Source of the DNA: Escherichia phage 6949
Length of the DNA: 44,371 bases
Reading direction: 5' to 3' (one strand)
Sequence record: OL362273.1
A program made the translations under genes and the position numbers. This document shows positions 8,232 to 14,202 of this stretch, piece after piece. Below the pieces are notes generated by a model. It saw only the letters and a program-made list of their open reading frames with translations. It searched no databases and had not been told where the DNA came from. The number at the start of each line of letters is the position of its first letter. Within the stretch, counting starts at the first letter, position 1.

Positions 8232-8420
8232 TCTCTCGCCCTCGCCCTCGCCGGGTTGTCCCCATAGGGTGGCCTGAGGGAATCCGTCTTCGACGGGCAT
8301 GGCTGATGTACTCCTTGGATAGTACAAGGGAGGCGGAGGGAACGCCTAGGGAGGCCTAGGAATGGCTTAGTGGTGGACAAGGTGATTACCTTAGTGAAGC
8401 CTCTTAGTGCATTCCTGAGG
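8232..8420. repeat. Probable genome terminus and terminal-repeat region (one collapsed copy)
   Basis: TCTCTCGCCCTCGCCCTCGCCGGGTTGTCCCCATAGGG at 8232 parallels the T7 left end as I recall it (TCTCACAGTG...CCCCCATAGGGGG). The region is non-coding and the first early genes lie downstream. The exact boundaries cannot be set from one collapsed copy. Confidence 0.4.
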
Positions 8421-8794
8421 CCATTCAGGGCTTTTATGAGGTATTGACAGGGTGGATGGGCGTGGGCTATCTGTTCGTTTCGTTCACTCCGCTTGCGCTA
8501 CGTTCACTCGCTCACGTGTACCTTATGCTATTACTTGATGGATAGCTTAGGTTATAGCTTAGTGGCCTACCTTAGTTATAACCTTAGTGCATAGCTTAGT
8601 ATCAGCTTAGTAGTGTACCTTAGTAAGTCTTAGTGTCTTCTCTTAGTGATTGCACATGCAAGCATGTAAGATGCCATTAGGTCGCGGTCGGTAGACCGCT
8701 ACAGAAGGAGAATAGTAATAAGATGCAGTAGGAGGAACACCAGAAACCTAGCCAACCTAGCCTATCCTAGCTCTGTATCTATTGCTTTTCCTTA

Positions 8795-8810
8795 GTCTAA
8801 CATGTGAGAC
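8795..8810. repeat. Palindrome family copy, degenerate (GTCTAACATGTGAGAC)
   Basis: One mismatch from a perfect 16 bp palindrome. Its flank CTAGGTTGTCTCACATG (read on the minus strand) matches the copy at 14411-14428. Confidence 0.4.
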
Positions 8811-8844
8811 AACCTAGATTTATCTTAGTGATGATATCTTAGTG

Positions 8845-8876
8845 TTGACAAGGCCATCTCAATATAATACTATTCA
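8845..8876 (+). promoter_or_regulatory. Candidate host sigma70 early promoter
   Basis: A perfect TTGACA at 8845-8850 is followed by a TATAATACTAT block. Spacing to the exact TATAAT is only 12 bp, so the working -10 is more likely TACTAT or AATACT at 15-17 bp. It sits upstream of the first early genes. Confidence 0.35.
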
Positions 8877-9016
8877 TCACGTAGGCAGCACTGAGGTGCT
8901 TAGTAGCCAGCTAGTAAGGCATACGAAGAGACTAGCGCTTACATTGCTCTTTAACAATTTGCTTAGTGTAACCTATGTATGCCGTGGTCAATTACTTATT
9001 GAATGAGGGATTAACT

Positions 9017-9196
9017 ATGACATTAAACAACCGTGAACTATCCGTTCTCTTCACTCTGTTGTGCTACATGATTCGTAAAAACGAATTGCTTACAGATGAC
9101 GAGTTAGCCTTGTATCACCGCTTTCTTAACGAAGGTTGGACCGATACAGTTAATCAATACCGTAACATGATAGATGAGTTGAGGGAGGGTAAATAA
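9017..9196 (+). CDS. Early hypothetical protein
   Basis: RBS GAGGGA precedes ATG 9017, which is in frame within track ORF 8975-9196. It is the first gene of the early region. Confidence 0.5.
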   Translation: MTLNNRELSVLFTLLCYMIRKNELLTDDELALYHRFLNEGWTDTVNQYRNMIDELREGK

Positions 9197-9420
9197 TGTA
9201 TCAGCATGAGGTTTTCTTTGAGTCAGCTAGTGAAGCTATCCGCTTCCTTGAAGATATGCTACAAGCTGGCGTAGGTGTTGATGTACATCACTTCCTACTA
9301 GATTACGACACTGAATATCACCGAGTTACCTTAGTATCTGAGTATGACAACCAAGTCATTACTGAGTACCTAGGCAGTGAAGATTACGATTACGATGAAG
9401 TAATCACGACAAATCTCTAA
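9196..9420 (+). CDS. Early acidic hypothetical protein
   Basis: RBS GAGGGAGGG precedes the ATG, which is coupled to the upstream stop through TAATG. The C-terminus is acidic and aromatic-rich. Confidence 0.55.
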   Translation: MYQHEVFFESASEAIRFLEDMLQAGVGVDVHHFLLDYDTEYHRVTLVSEYDNQVITEYLGSEDYDYDEVITTNL

Positions 9421-9549
9421 ATTAACTGATGACAGCCACGGCATACAAGGTTACATTAAGCATCAAGACGGCGACGTCTTTAAACATCCCGCTCTTTAAC
9501 AATACGGTTTGTGTCTTGATAGGCTAACTAACTAACTAAGGTAATTATC

Positions 9550-9660
9550 ATGAAAGGGTTAATTTGTGTAGAACGTATGGTCAATGGTAAACTTGAAATT
9601 TTACCACTGGAAAACCAATCTAGCTTCAAAGAGTGGTATGGCTGTTTCTCACTGATTTAA
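9550..9660 (+). CDS. Small early ORF (36 aa)
   Basis: RBS TAAGGT precedes ATG 9550, itself preceded by a CTAACTAACTAA stop-rich spacer. The ORF is below the track cutoff. Confidence 0.35.
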   Translation: MKGLICVERMVNGKLEILPLENQSSFKEWYGCFSLI

Positions 9661-9811
9661 GGTAAAGGCTGGCACTAGTCAGCCTATCAAGGCGCAAACC
9701 AAGCTCTTTAACAATTTGGATGGTAGCTTCTTAGTCTGGATAGGTTAAACCTAGGAGATTCTCTTGAGTCTCCTATAATGTAACCTAACTAACTAAATGA
9801 GGATTAACAAC

Positions 9812-10171
9812 ATGGCTATGTCTAATATGACTTACTCTCAGGTTTACAACACTGCTCATGCTGCATTAGTTGAACGTATCTGGAATGATGCTATTGATTG
9901 TATTGATAACGCACATGATGCAATCCATGATGCGGCGGATAGTGCTGTACCAATCTATTATGCTGACATCTTCTCCGTGATGGCGAGTGAAGGAATTGAT
10001 CATTTCTTCGAAGACTCCGGCCTGATGCCAGACACTAAGGATGTAACCGTAGTATTGCAAGCCCGTATCTATGAGCAACTCACAGTTGATCTATGGGAAC
10101 GTGTTCAGTATATGATTGTTGAATACGTCAACTCCGCCGAATATTTAGAAAAAGAAGAAGAGGAAGAATAA
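9812..10171 (+). CDS. ocr: Ocr (T7 gp0.3-like DNA mimic, anti-restriction)
   Basis: The translation from ATG 9812 is MAMSNMTY...[41 protein letters not shown]...[15 protein letters not shown] with an acidic tail. These blocks match my recollection of T7 Ocr. RBS AGGA lies upstream. Confidence 0.85.
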
Positions 10172-10172
10172 G

Positions 10173-10286
10173 ATGGAAAAGCTATACAACTTCATCTTTT
10201 CAGACGGTGTAACCCTGAAGTGTTCCCTACGATTCGCTCAGATTCGTGAGGAAGTGCTAGGTACTACATACAAACTATTTAGCTGA
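10173..10286 (+). CDS. Small early ORF (37 aa)
   Basis: RBS GAGGAAGA precedes ATG 10173, which is tightly coupled to the ocr stop. The ORF is below the track cutoff. Confidence 0.35.
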   Translation: MEKLYNFIFSDGVTLKCSLRFAQIREEVLGTTYKLFS

Positions 10287-10299
10287 CACTATAAGAGAA
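10277..10299 (+). promoter_or_regulatory. SP6-type promoter variant (+1 A) in the early region
   Basis: ATTTAGCTGACACTATA followed by AGAGAAG. The -17 to -1 region is near-identical to the canonical SP6 promoter, but the +1 base is A rather than G. Confidence 0.5.
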
Positions 10300-10362
10300 G
10301 GCTTAACAAGGCGTTGCTACGGTAGCGCCTGATTAAACTTTCACTTACTAGAGGTTAAAATT

Positions 10363-10488
10363 ATGAAACTATCGCCATCCGCTAAAGGCCTCATTGCAGA
10401 ACTTAAAGACTCTTTGAGGAATCCAATCATTTGGGCACTTATCTACATACCTTATGGTATCTACCTATTTCACCTCATCACTGAGTAA
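10363..10488 (+). CDS. Small early membrane protein (41 aa)
   Basis: RBS GAGGT precedes ATG 10363. The C-terminal segment IIWALIYIPYGIYLFHLI is hydrophobic. Confidence 0.35.
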   Translation: MKLSPSAKGLIAELKDSLRNPIIWALIYIPYGIYLFHLITE

Positions 10489-10521
10489 ATAGCCTATAGC
10501 CTACCTATGTGGGCTATGTGA

Positions 10522-10544
10522 TATTTACTTACACTATAAGGTGA
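10522..10544 (+). promoter_or_regulatory. Degenerate phage-promoter-like sequence
   Basis: TATTTACTTACACTATA followed by AGGTGA. The ACACTATA core is present, but the upstream half is shifted by one base. Confidence 0.25.
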
Positions 10545-11473
10545 TTGATATGACTACGGAAAACATCCTTCTGTCTGTTCGTGAAGCTGCAACCGCTGAA
10601 ATCAAGCAGCACTTAGACAATATCGGCACTTCTTACATCAAAGTTGGCGCTTGTCTGAATGAATTACGCGGTGATTTCGAAGGTCAAAAAGACTTTTTAG
10701 CTTATGTAGAATCAGAGTTCGGCATCAAGAAAGCACAATGCTACAAGCTGATGAGTGTAGCCCGTGTCTTTGAAGGAGACGAACGCTTTAAAGGTGTGGC
10801 TATGCGTGTAATGCTGGCGCTTGTTCCTTTCGCTGATGAAAATATAATCATGGAGAAGGCCGCAGAACTCGCCGCAGAGGGCAAGCTGGACACTAACGCC
10901 GTAAACGCCCTGATTGATCCTAAGAAAGAGACAAAGGCCGAGACGGTACAATCTAAGGCTGAGGCGGTAAAACCGCAGGAGAATGCGACTGAGGCCGCAG
11001 AAACTATGCAAGGACATGCAACCTTTGAGGATTTCATATTAGAGAAGGCGAAAGAGGAGCTACAAAGTGTGCCGCCAGCAAGTGAGTCTGGTAACGACGA
11101 ATCCGCACCGTGGGAAGACAAAAGCAAGCAGGAAGACACAAAGGCAGCGCCACGGGATAACACGGCTAACACCGAGAGTGCCGCTATTGCTGGCCTTCTG
11201 GCACAAATTAAAGCACTGACCGAGCAATTACAGGCAGCTAATGACCGCATTGCCTCCTTAAGCAGCGCACGCGAAAGCAAGAAAGCAGCCGCGCCTATGC
11301 TGCCGCAATTCAAATCTTCCTGCTTCTATGCTCGCTTAGGTTTAAGCGCTGAGGAGGCAACGAAGAAAACAGCAGTTAACAAGGCACGCCGCGAACTGGT
11401 TAAGCTAGGATACGGCGAAGGCCATGAAGCATGGCCCTTAATCTCTGAGGCAGTAGAAGAATTAACTAAGTAA
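10541..11473 (+). CDS. Early hypothetical protein (310 aa) immediately upstream of the RNA polymerase gene
   Basis: RBS AAGGTGA precedes the ATG. The protein has a structured N-terminal domain, a low-complexity Ala/Glu/Lys-rich middle, and a C-terminal helical domain. It occupies the slot that T7 gp0.7 holds, but I see no kinase motifs. Confidence 0.6.
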   Translation: MIDMTTENILLSVREAATAEIKQHLDNIGTSYIKVGACLNELRGDFEGQKDFLAYVESEFGIKKAQCYKLMSVARVFEGDERFKGVAMRVMLALVPFADENIIMEKAAELAAEGKLDTNAVNALIDPKKETKAETVQSKAEAVKPQENATEAAETMQGHATFEDFILEKAKEELQSVPPASESGNDESAPWEDKSKQEDTKAAPRDNTANTESAAIAGLLAQIKALTEQLQAANDRIASLSSARESKKAAAPMLPQFKSSCFYARLGLSAEEATKKTAVNKARRELVKLGYGEGHEAWPLISEAVEELTK

Positions 11474-11536
11474 CCTTATCGGTGGCATCTTCTTAGGTGT
11501 CACCTATTAAGGTTTCTTTCACTAGGAGTAAACAAG

Positions 11537-14164
11537 ATGCAAGACCTACACGCTATTCAACTTCAACTTGAAGAAGAAATGTTTAACGGCGGTATCCGTC
11601 GCTTTGAAGCGGACCAACAACGCCAGATTGCATCCGGTAATGAATCAGACACGGCATGGAATCGCCGCTTATTGTCCGAGTTAATCGCGCCAATGGCTGA
11701 AGGTATTCAGGCATACAAGGAAGAGTATGAAGGTAAAAGAGGCCGTGCACCGCGTGCATTAGCTTTCATTAACTGCGTAGAAAACGAAGTGGCAGCATAT
11801 ATCACGATGAAAATCGTTATGGATATGCTGAACACGGATGTAACCTTGCAGGCTATAGCCATGAATGTAGCTGACCGCATTGAGGACCAAGTACGTTTTA
11901 GCAAGCTGGAAGGTCACGCCGCCAAATACTTTGAGAAAGTTAAGAAGTCACTTAAGGCAAGTAAGACTAAATCATATCGCCATGCGCACAACGTAGCGGT
12001 CGTGGCTGAGAAGTCAGTAGCTGACCGTGACGCTGATTTCTCTCGCTGGGAGGCATGGCCTAAAGACACCTTGCTGCAAATTGGGATGACCTTGCTTGAA
12101 ATCTTAGAGAATAGCGTATTCTTCAACGGGCAACCTGTCTTCCTCCGCACCTTGCGCACTAATGGCGGCAAACATGGTGTTTACTACCTACAGACTAGTG
12201 AACACGTAGGTGAGTGGATAACTGCATTTAAAGAACATGTAGCGCAACTTAGTCCAGCCTATGCACCTTGCGTTATTCCTCCGCGTCCGTGGGTATCACC
12301 CTTTAACGGTGGGTTTCATACTGAGAAAGTAGCAAGCCGTATTCGTCTGGTAAAAGGCAATCGTGAGCACGTCCGCAAGCTGACCAAAAAGCAAATGCCA
12401 GCGGTTTACAAGGCTGTTAACGCTTTGCAGGCGACTAAGTGGCAGGTTAATAAAGAGGTTTTACAGGTTGTGGAGGACGTTATACGTCTAGACCTCGGCT
12501 ATGGTGTACCTTCCTTTAAACCACTCATCGACCGTGAGAACAAGCCCGCTAATCCGGTGCCGTTAGAGTTCCAGCACCTGCGAGGCCGTGAACTGAAAGA
12601 AATGCTTACGCCGGAACAATGGCAAGCCTTTATCAACTGGAAAGGTGAATGTACTAAGCTGTACACCGCTGAAACTAAGCGCGGAAGCAAATCGGCGGCA
12701 ACCGTTCGCATGGTTGGTCAGGCCCGTAAATATAGCCAGTTCGACGCAATCTACTTCGTGTATGCACTGGACAGCCGCAGCCGTGTATACGCGCAATCTA
12801 GCACGCTCTCGCCGCAATCAAACGACTTAGGCAAGGCATTGCTCCGTTTTACCGAAGGGCAGCGTCTTGATAGCGCTGAGGCGCTTAAGTGGTTTTTGGT
12901 GAACGGGGCTAATAACTGGGGTTGGGATAAGAAAACTTTTGACGTGCGCACCGCTAACGTGCTGGATAGTGAATTTCAAGACATGTGCCGCGACATTGCA
13001 GCGGATCCGCTGACCTTCACTCAATGGGTAAATGCCGACTCCCCTTACGGCTTCCTTGCATGGTGCTTTGAATATGCGCGTTATCTGGATGCACTGGATG
13101 AAGGCACGCAAGACCAATTCATGACGCACCTCCCAGTCCATCAAGATGGTAGTTGTTCTGGTATCCAGCACTACAGTGCTATGCTACGCGATGCAGTAGG
13201 TGCGAAAGCAGTAAACCTTAAGCCCTCTGACTCCCCTCAAGATATTTATGGCGCGGTTGCGCAGGTTGTTATCCAGAAGAATTACGCCTACATGAATGCA
13301 GACGACGCAGTGACTTTCACATCTGGAAGCGTCACACTTACAGGTGCAGAACTGCGTAGCATGGCTAGTGCGTGGGATATGATAGGAATCACTCGCGGAT
13401 TGACCAAAAAGCCCGTAATGACACTACCTTATGGCAGCACACGTCTAACCTGCCGTGAATCAGTGATTGATTATATCGTTGATTTAGAAGAAAAAGAGGC
13501 CCAACGGGCTATTGCGGAAGGGCGTACCGCCAATCCTGTACACCCTTTTGATAATGACCGTAAAGACAGCCTGACACCTAGCGCAGCTTATAACTATATG
13601 ACAGCTTTAATCTGGCCTTCTATTTCGGAAGTGGTTAAAGCTCCTATAGTGGCAATGAAAATGATTCGTCAGCTTGCCCGTTTCGCAGCTAAAAGGAATG
13701 AAGGCTTAGAGTATACCCTGCCTACTGGCTTCATCTTGCAACAAAAGATTATGGCTACTGATATGCTACGCGTATCTACTTGCTTGATGGGAGAAATCAA
13801 GATGAGTCTACAGATTGAAACGGACGTAGTAGATGAAACGGCAATGATGGGCGCTGCTGCTCCTAACTTTGTGCATGGTCATGATGCCAGTCACCTTATC
13901 TTAACGGTCTGCGACCTTGTTGATAAAGGGATTACATCTATCGCAGTAATTCATGATTCTTTTGGCACTCATGCAGGCCGTACAGCCGATCTACGCAACA
14001 GCTTAAGGGCAGAAATGGTGAAGATGTATCAAGGCCGTAATGCACTGCAAAGCCTGCTAGATGAGCACGAAGAACGCTGGTTAGTTGATACAGGAATACA
14101 AGTACCAGAGCAAGGGGAGTTTGACCTTAACGAAATCTTAGTTTCAGACTATTGCTTCGCATAA
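11537..14164 (+). CDS. Single-subunit DNA-directed RNA polymerase (SP6-type)
   Basis: The 875 aa protein starts [32 protein letters not shown], matching the SP6 RNA polymerase N-terminus as I remember it. The catalytic region reads [19 protein letters not shown] and VIHDSFGTH, and the C-terminus ends ..FA. Confidence 0.97.
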
Positions 14165-14172
14165 TATTAATA

Positions 14173-14202
14173 GGCCATTCCTTCGGGAGTGGCCTTTCTT
14201 TT
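14173..14202 (+). terminator. Intrinsic terminator after the RNA polymerase gene
   Basis: The stem GGCCAUUCC / GGAGUGGCC (one G-U pair) encloses a UUCG tetraloop and is followed by TTTCTTTT. Confidence 0.65.

Follow-up and report, generated by a model that had tools for sequence, protein, structure and literature searches.

Predicted rrn-type BoxA elements adjoin conserved long-range RNA helices in the early leader of an SP6-like coliphage

The window, i.e., the whole stretch of 44,371 nucleotides that was analyzed (OL362273.1), represents the genome of a coliphage of the K1E/K1-5/SP6-like type (Vectrevirus) in circularly permuted form. Its early region carries three copies of a 13-mer that the initial annotation had reported at 8946, 9491, and 9703; all three are perfect and the positions are exact. 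The positions of the open reading frames (ORFs) confirmed that the copies and the accompanying elements are situated between the early genes or ahead of them. The features of the region are the following.

8845 to 8873, plus strand: early sigma-70 promoter P1 (TTGACA-17-TACTAT), consensus prediction, top scoring in the region with 10 of 12 matches
8946 to 8958, plus strand: BoxA1, GCTCTTTAACAAT, by sequence an rrn-type NusB/NusE site (identity with the rrnH leader BoxA; relatives)
8960 to 8987, plus strand: leader (5') strand of helix 1, inverted repeats I3/I4, starting 1 nt past BoxA1
9017 to 9420, plus strand: helix 1 cargo, consisting of two small early genes (9017 to 9196, 59 amino acids; 9196 to 9420, 74 amino acids)
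9429 to 9457, plus strand: second sigma-70 promoter P2 (ATGACA-17-TACATT), consensus prediction
9436 to 9462, plus strand: trailer (3') strand of helix 1 (inverted repeats, duplex energy, global fold, covariation)
9466 to 9481, plus strand: small hairpin AAGACG-GCGA-CGTCTT with a 6-bp stem, between P2 and BoxA2, seen in the fold
9491 to 9503, plus strand: BoxA2, exact copy of GCTCTTTAACAAT, conserved in relatives
9506 to 9530, plus strand: leader strand of helix 2, inverted repeat I1, starting 2 nt past BoxA2
9550 to 9660, plus strand: cargo of helix 2, a 36-amino-acid mini-gene (ORF)
9666 to 9685, plus strand: local GC tetraloop hairpin ("H" hairpin), covarying in relatives
9676 to 9700, plus strand: trailer strand of helix 2 (inverted repeat, fold, covariation), ending 2 nt short of BoxA3
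9703 to 9715, plus strand: BoxA3, exact copy of GCTCTTTAACAAT, corresponding in position to the T7 BoxA that precedes R0.3 and gene 0.3
9727 to 9802, plus strand: local bulged hairpin, candidate RNase III site (z score of -3.6; individual folds; global fold)
9812 to 10171, plus strand: ocr, gene 0.3-like anti-restriction protein (PHROG 2568, E = 6e-46)
14172 to 14195, plus strand: terminator-like hairpin, a 10-bp stem followed by a T-run, 3' of the RNA polymerase gene

The predicted start of P1 is at about 8880, which places BoxA1 at about +66. The -35 element of P2 is ATGACA in the window, a mutated version of the TTGACA present in relatives, and the spacer and -10 element of this promoter are at the same time part of the trailer strand of helix 1. 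All BoxAs are found on the sense strand. Predicted promoters (P1 and P2) precede them, and the first promoter for the phage polymerase follows at 10287. The hairpin at 14172 to 14195 likely marks the end of early transcription by the host polymerase. The cargo of helix 1 matched PHROG 9275 and PHROG 6403, both without an assigned function; a PHROG search with the mini-gene of helix 2 returned no matches. The first gene past the last module is ocr. RNase III-like hairpins are also present further downstream (10289 to 10351 and 11472 to 11514), and a search for BoxA after these two hairpins found none. An Rfam scan of the whole window retrieved no family at the gathering score, and in a scan of positions 8800 to 10400 at E <= 1, the single match, at 10286 to 10356, was to a miRNA model and reflected a generic hairpin. 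A leftward promoter on the strand complementary to the helix 1 leader (TTGACC-15-TACACT) was considered and rejected, since the relatives lack the -35 element.

In E. coli, BoxA is the site to which NusB-NusE binds and from which the Nus-factor antitermination complex assembles on RNA polymerase. All three 13-mers of the window are identical to the BoxA of the E. coli rrnH leader over 13 nt and have a single mismatch to the spacer BoxA. By its sequence, the repeated motif is an rrn-type BoxA, that is, a predicted Nus-factor loading and antitermination signal. It occurs nowhere else in the 44 kb; shuffled sequences gave an expectation of 0.01 copies, and none of 100 shuffles contained three or more. 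When both strands of the 44 kb were searched with the gammaproteobacterial BoxA consensus GYTCTTTAANA (PMC5725501), the only perfect matches were the three BoxAs. Phage T7 has one identical copy, located between promoter A3 and gene 0.3, and according to a passage of PMC3709561 that cites Savalia 2010, this T7 BoxA is an antitermination element in which mutations make Gp2 dispensable. The initial annotation had considered the 13-mer as part of RNase III-type processing units; as a cleavage site it has to be discarded, since it corresponds to the BoxA of rrnH and T7.

A lack of conservation in related phages had been named as evidence that would speak against the modules, but the modules are conserved. 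All 20 of the closest loci contain 2 or 3 BoxA copies, all on the sense strand and upstream of the polymerase gene, and more distant SP6-like loci, with polymerase identities down to 42%, contain 1 to 4 copies. Over 49 distinct contexts, the information content is near maximal across the 13-mer and low in its flanks, so that the motif forms a conserved island. A sigma-70 promoter with at least 10 of 12 matches is present within 100 nt upstream in 50 of 93 distinct BoxA modules, compared with 1% of random positions. The GenBank records of T7 and SP6 contain no annotated BoxA or RNase III features, and a full-text literature search retrieved no paper naming BoxA together with SP6-like phages; an earlier description in the K1F or SP6 genome papers is possible.

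A long helix adjoins every BoxA, its 5' strand starting within 1 to 2 nt past the motif; this is the main new result. In units 1 and 2, the partner strand is located 145 to 450 nt downstream, just ahead of the next BoxA, and a gene cassette is enclosed. Helix 1 has 27 bp and a duplex energy of -47.6 kcal/mol, which was surpassed by 0 of 1,098 control windows; in the global fold of positions 8880 to 9830, its pair probabilities are about 1.0. In the alignment of helix 1, which excluded two divergent sequences that were out of register, 97% of the cells are paired and 13 of 28 pairs show compensatory change. On all five measures, none of 500 shuffles was as good, and controls in which the partner strand was shifted by 1 to 3 columns showed only 22 to 36% pairing. 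Helix 2 has 24 bp (-39.7 kcal/mol; z score of -6.5), with pair probabilities of 0.74 to 1.0 at 24 of the 25 leader-strand positions in the same global fold. Its alignment is 98% paired with 15 compensatory cells, and on three of the five measures it was equaled by none of 500 shuffles. The cargo of helix 2 varies between relatives. The 3' arm of the H hairpin shares nucleotides with the distal portion of the trailer strand of helix 2, and the two structures compete in the global fold.

No long-range partner was found for the segment past BoxA3, the best candidate reaching -25 kcal/mol compared with -40 to -47 kcal/mol for helices 1 and 2. This segment instead contains the local hairpin at 9727 to 9802, which consists of 19 plus 10 bp with an internal loop. 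Its lower stem pairs 9731 to 9747 with 9781 to 9796, and its 10-bp upper stem pairs 9752 to 9761 with 9766 to 9775; the 3' arm of the lower stem is TAACCTAACTAACTAA, which contains (CTAA)3. A hairpin had been annotated at 9754 to 9775; it is real but represents only the upper stem of the larger structure. Because the MAFFT alignment of this hairpin was out of register at the divergent upper stems, relatives were compared by individual folds: the lower stem is constant, and at least four different upper stems exist. In one relative (L005), the upper stem AGGGTAT..GTGCCCT corresponds to the T7 stem upstream of gene 0.3. The hairpin agrees in position with T7 R0.3, which we take to be a mapped RNase III cleavage site before gene 0.3, whereas the sequence of the upper stem agrees in some relatives only.

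The elements that gave rise to the initial annotation can now be reassigned. Its view was that the 13-mer, the small hairpins, and the CTAA spacers form local RNase III or re-initiation units, with CTAA clearing ribosomes before the next gene. Some of the evidence agrees with this: the modules are intercistronic and conserved, the hairpin at 9752 to 9775 is part of an R0.3-like structure, and TAA is present in all three frames of both CTAA runs. We nevertheless regard local units of this kind as very unlikely, for the following reasons. (i) The 13-mer is the rrn BoxA. (ii) The hairpin at 9466 to 9481 exists, as it can be read in the sequence and is present in the fold, but with a stem of 6 bp it is too short for RNase III; it is also optional, being missing from several relatives, and its assignment as a processing site is not upheld. 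(iii) The spacer CTAACTAACTAA is present at 9524 to 9535 and 9528 to 9539, where the two overlapping copies together form (CTAA)4 at 9524 to 9539, and at 9785 to 9796, one base away from the 9784 given before; the chance expectation for the spacer is 0.00. In the second module, however, the CTAA run is replaced in relatives by CTTACTAACAAAGG and the like, so that the three-frame property is not conserved, and no real ORF enters either run. A three-frame stop function was therefore rejected as the main explanation, and both runs are accounted for as helix strands: the start of the (CTAA)4 run is the distal end of the helix 2 leader strand, and the (CTAA)3 run belongs to the unit-3 hairpin. What stands of the proposal of reiterated intercistronic processing units is that modules are reiterated and that the evidence points to an RNase III type of processing, whereas several of their parts had been misassigned.

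To place the helices in a wider context, 53 distinct BoxA-to-BoxA intervals were taken from relatives that infect E. coli, Salmonella, Pseudomonas, and Vibrio. A helix starting 1 to 2 nt past BoxA was found in 50 of them, with energies of -33 to -61 kcal/mol, and was absent in 3. No control window matched 48 of the 50 duplexes, and the other 2 were matched by one window each. The intervals comprise about 18 unrelated helix sequences, and the helix strands are always outside ORFs. Among the helix mismatches, G.U pairs outnumber A.C (55 versus 19; p = 3e-5, which is not a strict probability, because the counted sequences are kin to one another), and this excess points to selection on the sense RNA. 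Relatives with a single BoxA also have a long-range helix beginning next to it, and SP6 has a perfect 30-bp helix of this BoxA-adjoining type, formed by positions 940 to 969 and 1491 to 1520 of its genome. In several relatives, a helix is present without a BoxA after its trailer strand, and any reloading at a following BoxA is consequently not obligatory.

These data bear on the possibility that the direct repeats of BoxA, together with the inverted repeats that flank them, act at the DNA level, as scars or substrates of cassette-shuffling recombination comparable to mobile regulatory cassettes or terminal inverted repeats; the helices would then serve no function in RNA. Identical leaders do enclose different cargo in different phages, one and the same upstream part continues into different downstream leaders with the switch exactly at BoxA, L005 resembles the window minus its BoxA2-to-BoxA3 unit, and another relative (L043) has an "empty" hairpin. 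However, the preference for G.U over A.C is strand specific and unexpected for DNA repeats, compensatory changes maintain pairing across the roughly 18 unrelated sequences, and the strands avoid ORFs and begin 1 to 2 nt past BoxA with a geometry as in rrnH. Exchange of cassettes is, moreover, compatible with a function of the helices in RNA, and we hold an exclusively DNA-level origin to be highly improbable. The changing cargo and constant leaders indicate rather that BoxA-to-BoxA units act as exchangeable cassettes.

Helices 1 and 2 and the hairpin at 9727 to 9802 are candidate RNase III substrates, as judged from predicted structures that take no account of ribosomes or transcription kinetics; helices 1 and 2 had been missed in the initial annotation. 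Both helices 1 and 2 have at least 20 bp, or about two helical turns, the size required by RNase III, and pairing is kept by compensatory change in the two helices and in the upper stems of unit 3. A predicted helix of at least 20 bp would be necessary for RNase III but is not proof of cleavage, and the helices could instead stabilize the mRNAs by end pairing or tune translation. No RNase III-like local hairpin was found between the BoxAs; that a BoxA would be reloaded after RNase III is tenable since the long-range helices lie between the BoxAs.

Two further explanations concern what the helices and the BoxAs do. The helices may be real but uncut, pairing the mRNA ends against RNase E and exonucleases or insulating the folds of individual cistrons, with BoxA serving for antitermination only. 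Covariation is evidence of selected pairing and silent on cleavage, and paired ends would plausibly stabilize an mRNA. Against this, the third unit is like T7 R0.3 in position and partly in sequence, R0.3 being presumably a cleaved site, and the helices, in their length of 24 to 30 bp and their placement directly past BoxA, follow the rrn leader-trailer helix, which RNase III cuts, so that we consider uncut helices unlikely. The least probable of the alternatives, in our estimation, is that BoxA serves mainly as a translational repressor, with Nus complexes occluding ribosome-binding sites as in suhB, or as a NusB/NusE decoy that acts against the host rrn operons. Repression of suhB translation that depends on BoxA is documented (PMC5725501), and three BoxAs per transcript from a strong promoter would give many BoxA-bearing fragments. 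However, the start codons are 47 to 96 nt past the BoxAs with helix strands intervening, the T7 mutations described in the above passage of PMC3709561 affect an antitermination element, and the adjoining covarying helices would be left unexplained.

The closest parallel to the phage region is the rrn operon of E. coli, which has a boxB-BoxA-boxC leader, a leader-trailer helix that surrounds 16S rRNA and is an RNase III substrate, and a second BoxA set before 23S. The BoxA 13-mer is the same, the leader strand starts 0 nt past BoxA in rrnH as compared with 1 to 2 nt in the phage, and both systems have a further BoxA past the trailer strand and a sigma-70 promoter shortly upstream. The phage helices of 24 to 30 bp compare with 25 to 40 bp in rrn (PMC10250234). 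The cargo, in contrast, consists of small protein-coding genes in loops of 145 to 450 nt rather than rRNA, boxC is not shared by the phage leader strands, and the next promoter shares sequence with the trailer strand of helix 1. The region is consequently predicted to work like an rrn leader but lies outside that family, as its cargo is protein coding and a common boxC is missing.

Similarities to phage systems are more partial. T7 has an identical BoxA and the same order of BoxA, bulged hairpin, ribosome-binding site, and ocr, and its upper-stem sequence is common to some of the relatives; however, T7 and K1F have a single BoxA and local hairpins only, whereas long-range helices enclosing genes are present both in the phage studied here, with its three BoxAs, and in its SP6-like relatives. 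The lambda nut site requires a downstream boxB hairpin and the N protein. As in the phage, it contains a BoxA, which in the nascent RNA recruits NusB/NusE to the host polymerase for processive antitermination, but the phage BoxA is of the rrn type and is followed by a helix strand instead of a boxB hairpin. A lambda-type nut site was rejected, given that there is no boxB after BoxA and that the small hairpins are upstream of BoxA. T4-type phages have mobile regulatory cassettes, composed of a promoter and a stem-loop, that flank shuffled genes. Conserved modules likewise bound variable small early genes in the phage and appear to be exchange joints, but the repeat is a BoxA with a covarying pair of complementary strands. 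The BoxA of lambda departs from the rrn sequence and is bound more weakly (PMC3177189). An rrn-type BoxA in an mRNA leader is also found in the suhB 5' untranslated region (PMC5725501), where, unlike in the phage, the element represses the adjacent downstream gene and is neither reiterated nor tied to long-range helices.

The motif is that of the rrn BoxA; the helices exist, are conserved, covary, and are fixed beside BoxA; and promoters are often located upstream. From this we infer Nus binding, antitermination, chaperoning of the helices, RNase III cleavage, and reloading. The early leader read by the host polymerase would accordingly consist of three consecutive units that resemble an rRNA operon leader in their construction, a reading that we judge probable from the sequence; because each BoxA adjoins a strand of a conserved, cassette-bracketing helix, the early operon appears to be laid out like a miniature rRNA operon. 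The best explanation is, with similar probability, a combination of Nus-dependent antitermination, helix holding, and excision of cassettes by RNase III in units headed by BoxA. Each unit starts with the rrn-type BoxA GCUCUUUAACAAU and continues, within 1 to 2 nt, into the 5' strand of a helix measuring at least 20 bp. The host polymerase starting at P1 or P2 would read BoxA and form a fast complex resistant to Rho and pausing, which could then cross the untranslated structured leader and arrive at the gene of the phage RNA polymerase. With BoxA tethered at the RNA exit channel, the leader strand would be held until the trailer strand is out, which would favor formation of the long-range helix. 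Cleavage of the helices by RNase III would then give each cassette its own mRNA with paired ends, freed from the BoxA-bearing leader, and the BoxA past each trailer strand would tether the complex again. In the rrn operons, RNase III cuts the leader-trailer helix, and a tethering model has been proposed in which BoxA holds the leader strand for the trailer strand (PMC10250234); a stable rrn antitermination complex enhances the cutting of the long-range helix by RNase III during transcription by a factor of about 5 or more (bioRxiv 10.64898/2026.03.17.712431).

More tentatively, SP6-like phages may have copied the logic of the rRNA operon for mRNAs, using the BoxA-loaded Nus complex as an RNA chaperone that enables co-transcriptional excision by RNase III of the early gene cassettes, which probably serve anti-defence; the BoxA fragments set free might in addition sequester host NusB/NusE. 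The role of the rrn antitermination complex as an RNA-looping chaperone for RNase III is an active question that has so far concerned only rRNA (PMC10250234; bioRxiv 10.64898/2026.03.17.712431). If the phage units work as proposed, the same device would operate on protein-coding transcripts, providing a natural non-rRNA case of polymerase-tethered long-range RNA folding and a compact, genetically tractable test model (loops of 200 to 550 nt) with many natural compensatory variants; each BoxA-to-BoxA unit would in this case amount to a self-contained expression cassette that can be exchanged. The finding accounts for the multiple BoxAs of SP6/K1E-like phages and for the constant leaders before changing early genes, and it suggests how anti-defence cassettes are swapped without breaking expression signals. 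For annotation, the intergenic repeats are to be labeled as BoxA and helix strands and not as stop-codon spacers.

The 13-mer that occurs three times between the early genes is almost certainly BoxA. Exactly three copies are present (8946, 9491, and 9703, as recorded in the initial annotation, against 0.01 expected), and these are identical to the Escherichia coli rrnH leader BoxA (TGCTCTTTAACAATTTATC), differ by 1 base from the rrn spacer BoxA, and fit the consensus GYTCTTTAANA (PMC5725501), for which no other match was found on either strand of the window. In T7, a single identical copy lies downstream of promoter A3 and upstream of gene 0.3 (813-825); according to PMC3709561, citing Savalia 2010, this copy is an antitermination element, and mutating it renders Gp2 dispensable. 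Each of 20 close relatives contains 2 or 3 copies, all on the sense strand and all ahead of the polymerase gene, and more distant SP6-like contigs, including Pseudomonas phage Alpheus and Vibrio phage Vc1, contain 1 to 4. Information is near-maximal over the 13-mer, and the flanks are variable (49 distinct contexts). A full-text search of incomplete coverage found no literature linking BoxA to SP6-like phages. At 2354-2360 of rrnH, the spacer BoxA is followed by CTGGAT, and the same six bases follow BoxA in K1F and in one close relative (L020); the match is limited to CTGG or CTGGA in several other relatives and in T7.

The modules (8946-9811) form the beginning of the early operon. Window positions 8400-10400 share 91 to 98% identity with genomes of Vectrevirus (the K1E/K1-5 group, part of the SP6-like Molineuxvirinae); the window is circularly permuted, and several records start at about window position 8470. 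Since the first phage-polymerase promoter (..CACTATA..) lies at 10287, the segment ~8880-10280 is expected to be transcribed by the host polymerase only. The main features are as follows.

Features of the early region (+ strand numbering)
8845-8873, P1, sigma-70 promoter predicted by consensus, precedes BoxA1
8960-8987 with 9436-9462, helix 1, 27 bp with one bulge
9017-9196, 9196-9420, and 9550-9660, + strand, small early genes
9429-9457, P2, sigma-70 promoter predicted by consensus, precedes BoxA2
9506-9530 with 9676-9700, helix 2
9812-10171, + strand, ocr
11537-14164, phage RNA polymerase gene
14172-14195, terminator-like hairpin after the RNA polymerase gene

The ~30 nt directly 3' of BoxA are complementary to the segment right ahead of the next BoxA. 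The two resulting helices, each with a leader (5') and a trailer (3') strand, are both predicted when the whole 8880-9830 RNA is folded to minimum energy (pair probabilities close to 1), and their strands flank the coding regions 9017-9420 (helix 1) and 9550-9660 (helix 2) without overlap. These helices are very probably under selection at the RNA level. (i) A duplex of -33 to -61 kcal/mol that starts 1 to 2 nt after BoxA was found in 50 of 53 distinct BoxA-to-BoxA intervals (all loci, from sequences related to each other); no control window was as good for 48 of these 50, and a single one was for each of the other two. The helix sequences belong to ~18 unrelated types. (ii) Among the compared sequences, likewise interrelated, 97% of helix 1 cells were paired (22 to 36% when the partner strand was moved by 1 to 3 columns), 13 of 28 pairs had both-side changes, and none of 500 shuffles was as good on any measure; for helix 2, 98% of cells were paired and 15 were compensatory, and on three of five measures no shuffle of 500 was as good. 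(iii) Non-Watson-Crick positions were G.U in 55 cases and A.C in 19 (P = 3e-5, symmetric scoring), and this excess argues for selection on sense-strand RNA rather than on DNA repeats. (iv) In SP6 (AY370673; 926-1560), the genes at 998-1477 are enclosed by a perfect 30-bp helix (940-969 with 1491-1520), downstream of which lie a promoter-like TTGACT-17-TACATT and a degenerate third BoxA with one mismatch (GATCTTTAACAAT); in single-BoxA relatives, a long-range helix still adjoins BoxA. A GC-rich tetraloop hairpin (9666-9685) also covaries among relatives; its 3' arm is common to the distal helix 2 trailer (9676-9700), making the two mutually exclusive over ~5 to 8 bp, which could represent a switch or a folding intermediate.

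The units share the rrn geometry of a BoxA followed by a helix leader strand: in the rrnH operon, 0 nt separate the BoxA 13-mer from the leader strand of the 16S leader-trailer helix (342-384 with 2018-2060). The rrn helices span 25 to 40 bp and are cleaved by RNase III, a second BoxA set lies ahead of 23S, and NusB-bound BoxA is proposed to retain the leader at the RNA exit channel until the trailer strand appears (PMC10250234); a stably assembled antitermination complex is reported to increase cotranscriptional RNase III cleavage of the rrn long-range helix ~5-fold or more (bioRxiv 10.64898/2026.03.17.712431). The phage cargo, in contrast, is protein coding, and boxC is absent. The units would function in the manner of an rrn leader but do not belong to the rrn family. 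RNase III would probably cut the phage helices; more tentatively, a BoxA-tethered complex may chaperone helix formation and would reload at the following BoxA, a possibility that we rate at somewhat below even.

A strong predicted sigma-70 promoter lies 17 to 35 nt upstream in 50 of 93 distinct BoxA modules, as compared to 1% of random positions; its -35 is almost invariably a perfect TTGACA. In most lineages, the helix 1 trailer strand also supplies the next such promoter with its spacer and -10. The P2 -35 element (9429-9434) reads ATGACA in the window and TTGACA in all close relatives; judged from sequence, P2 may be weakened in this genome.

No long-range partner was found for BoxA3; the structure after it is a local bulged hairpin (9727-9802). 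The initial annotation had proposed two small hairpins and two three-frame-stop CTAACTAACTAA spacers as intercistronic processing or re-initiation units. Both hairpins exist, the second being only the tip of 9727-9802. The two runs are real (0 expected), at 9524/9528 (together (CTAA)4) and at 9785 rather than 9784; the helix 2 leader strand ends distally in the first bases of (CTAA)4, (CTAA)3 makes up the 3' arm in the lower stem of 9727-9802, and module 2 of relatives does not retain stops in all three frames. Relatives retain this lower stem with at least four different upper stems, one of which (L005; AGGGTAT...GTGCCCT) matches the T7 stem between BoxA and gene 0.3. We take this T7 stem to be the mapped RNase III site R0.3; it carries no annotation in the sequence records examined. 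Other long bulged hairpins occupy this position in more distant relatives, and structure in the 100 nt that follow the last BoxA exceeds that of random segments. The T7 segment after BoxA (826-861; CUCUUGAGU...) has two alternative pairings, a local one in the leader hairpin of gene 0.3 and one with ACUCAAGG (1420-1459, intergenic after gene 0.4; -29.7 kcal/mol, z = -3.7) that would enclose genes 0.3 and 0.4; the latter signal is weak and may reflect only a motif common to both sites.

Three leader types recur, each ahead of differing genes; one promoter part is joined to differing leaders exactly at BoxA, and one relative lacks the entire BoxA2-to-BoxA3 unit. Exchange at BoxA would keep both strands of one helix together. 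The 58-nt leader after BoxA1 (8959-9016; TTGCTTAGTGTAACCTATGTATGCCGTGG...GAATGAGG..ATG) is near-invariant in relatives, yet at least five unrelated genes lie downstream. At 2508-2600 of another relative (L043), helix 2-family strands form a local hairpin directly after BoxA (-35 kcal/mol) with no gene between, which looks like an empty cassette site.

Two phage-polymerase promoters (..CACTATAAG..; 10287 and 10532) lie upstream of the RNA polymerase gene, so that the phage polymerase can transcribe its own gene as well. Three further intergenic bulged hairpins (z = -2.8 to -4.8), none with a BoxA ahead, occur in the early/middle region, namely, 10289-10351, directly after the promoter at ~10287; 10486-10527; and 11472-11514, immediately upstream of the RNA polymerase gene. 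The hexamer CTTAGT (often CTTAGTG) has 32 copies on the window + strand, 18 of them within 8366-9730; most form an irregular array near the genome left end and P1 (8366-8962; also 9330 and 9730), and copies also stand at the start of helix 1's leader strand and of the lower stem in hairpin 9727-9802.
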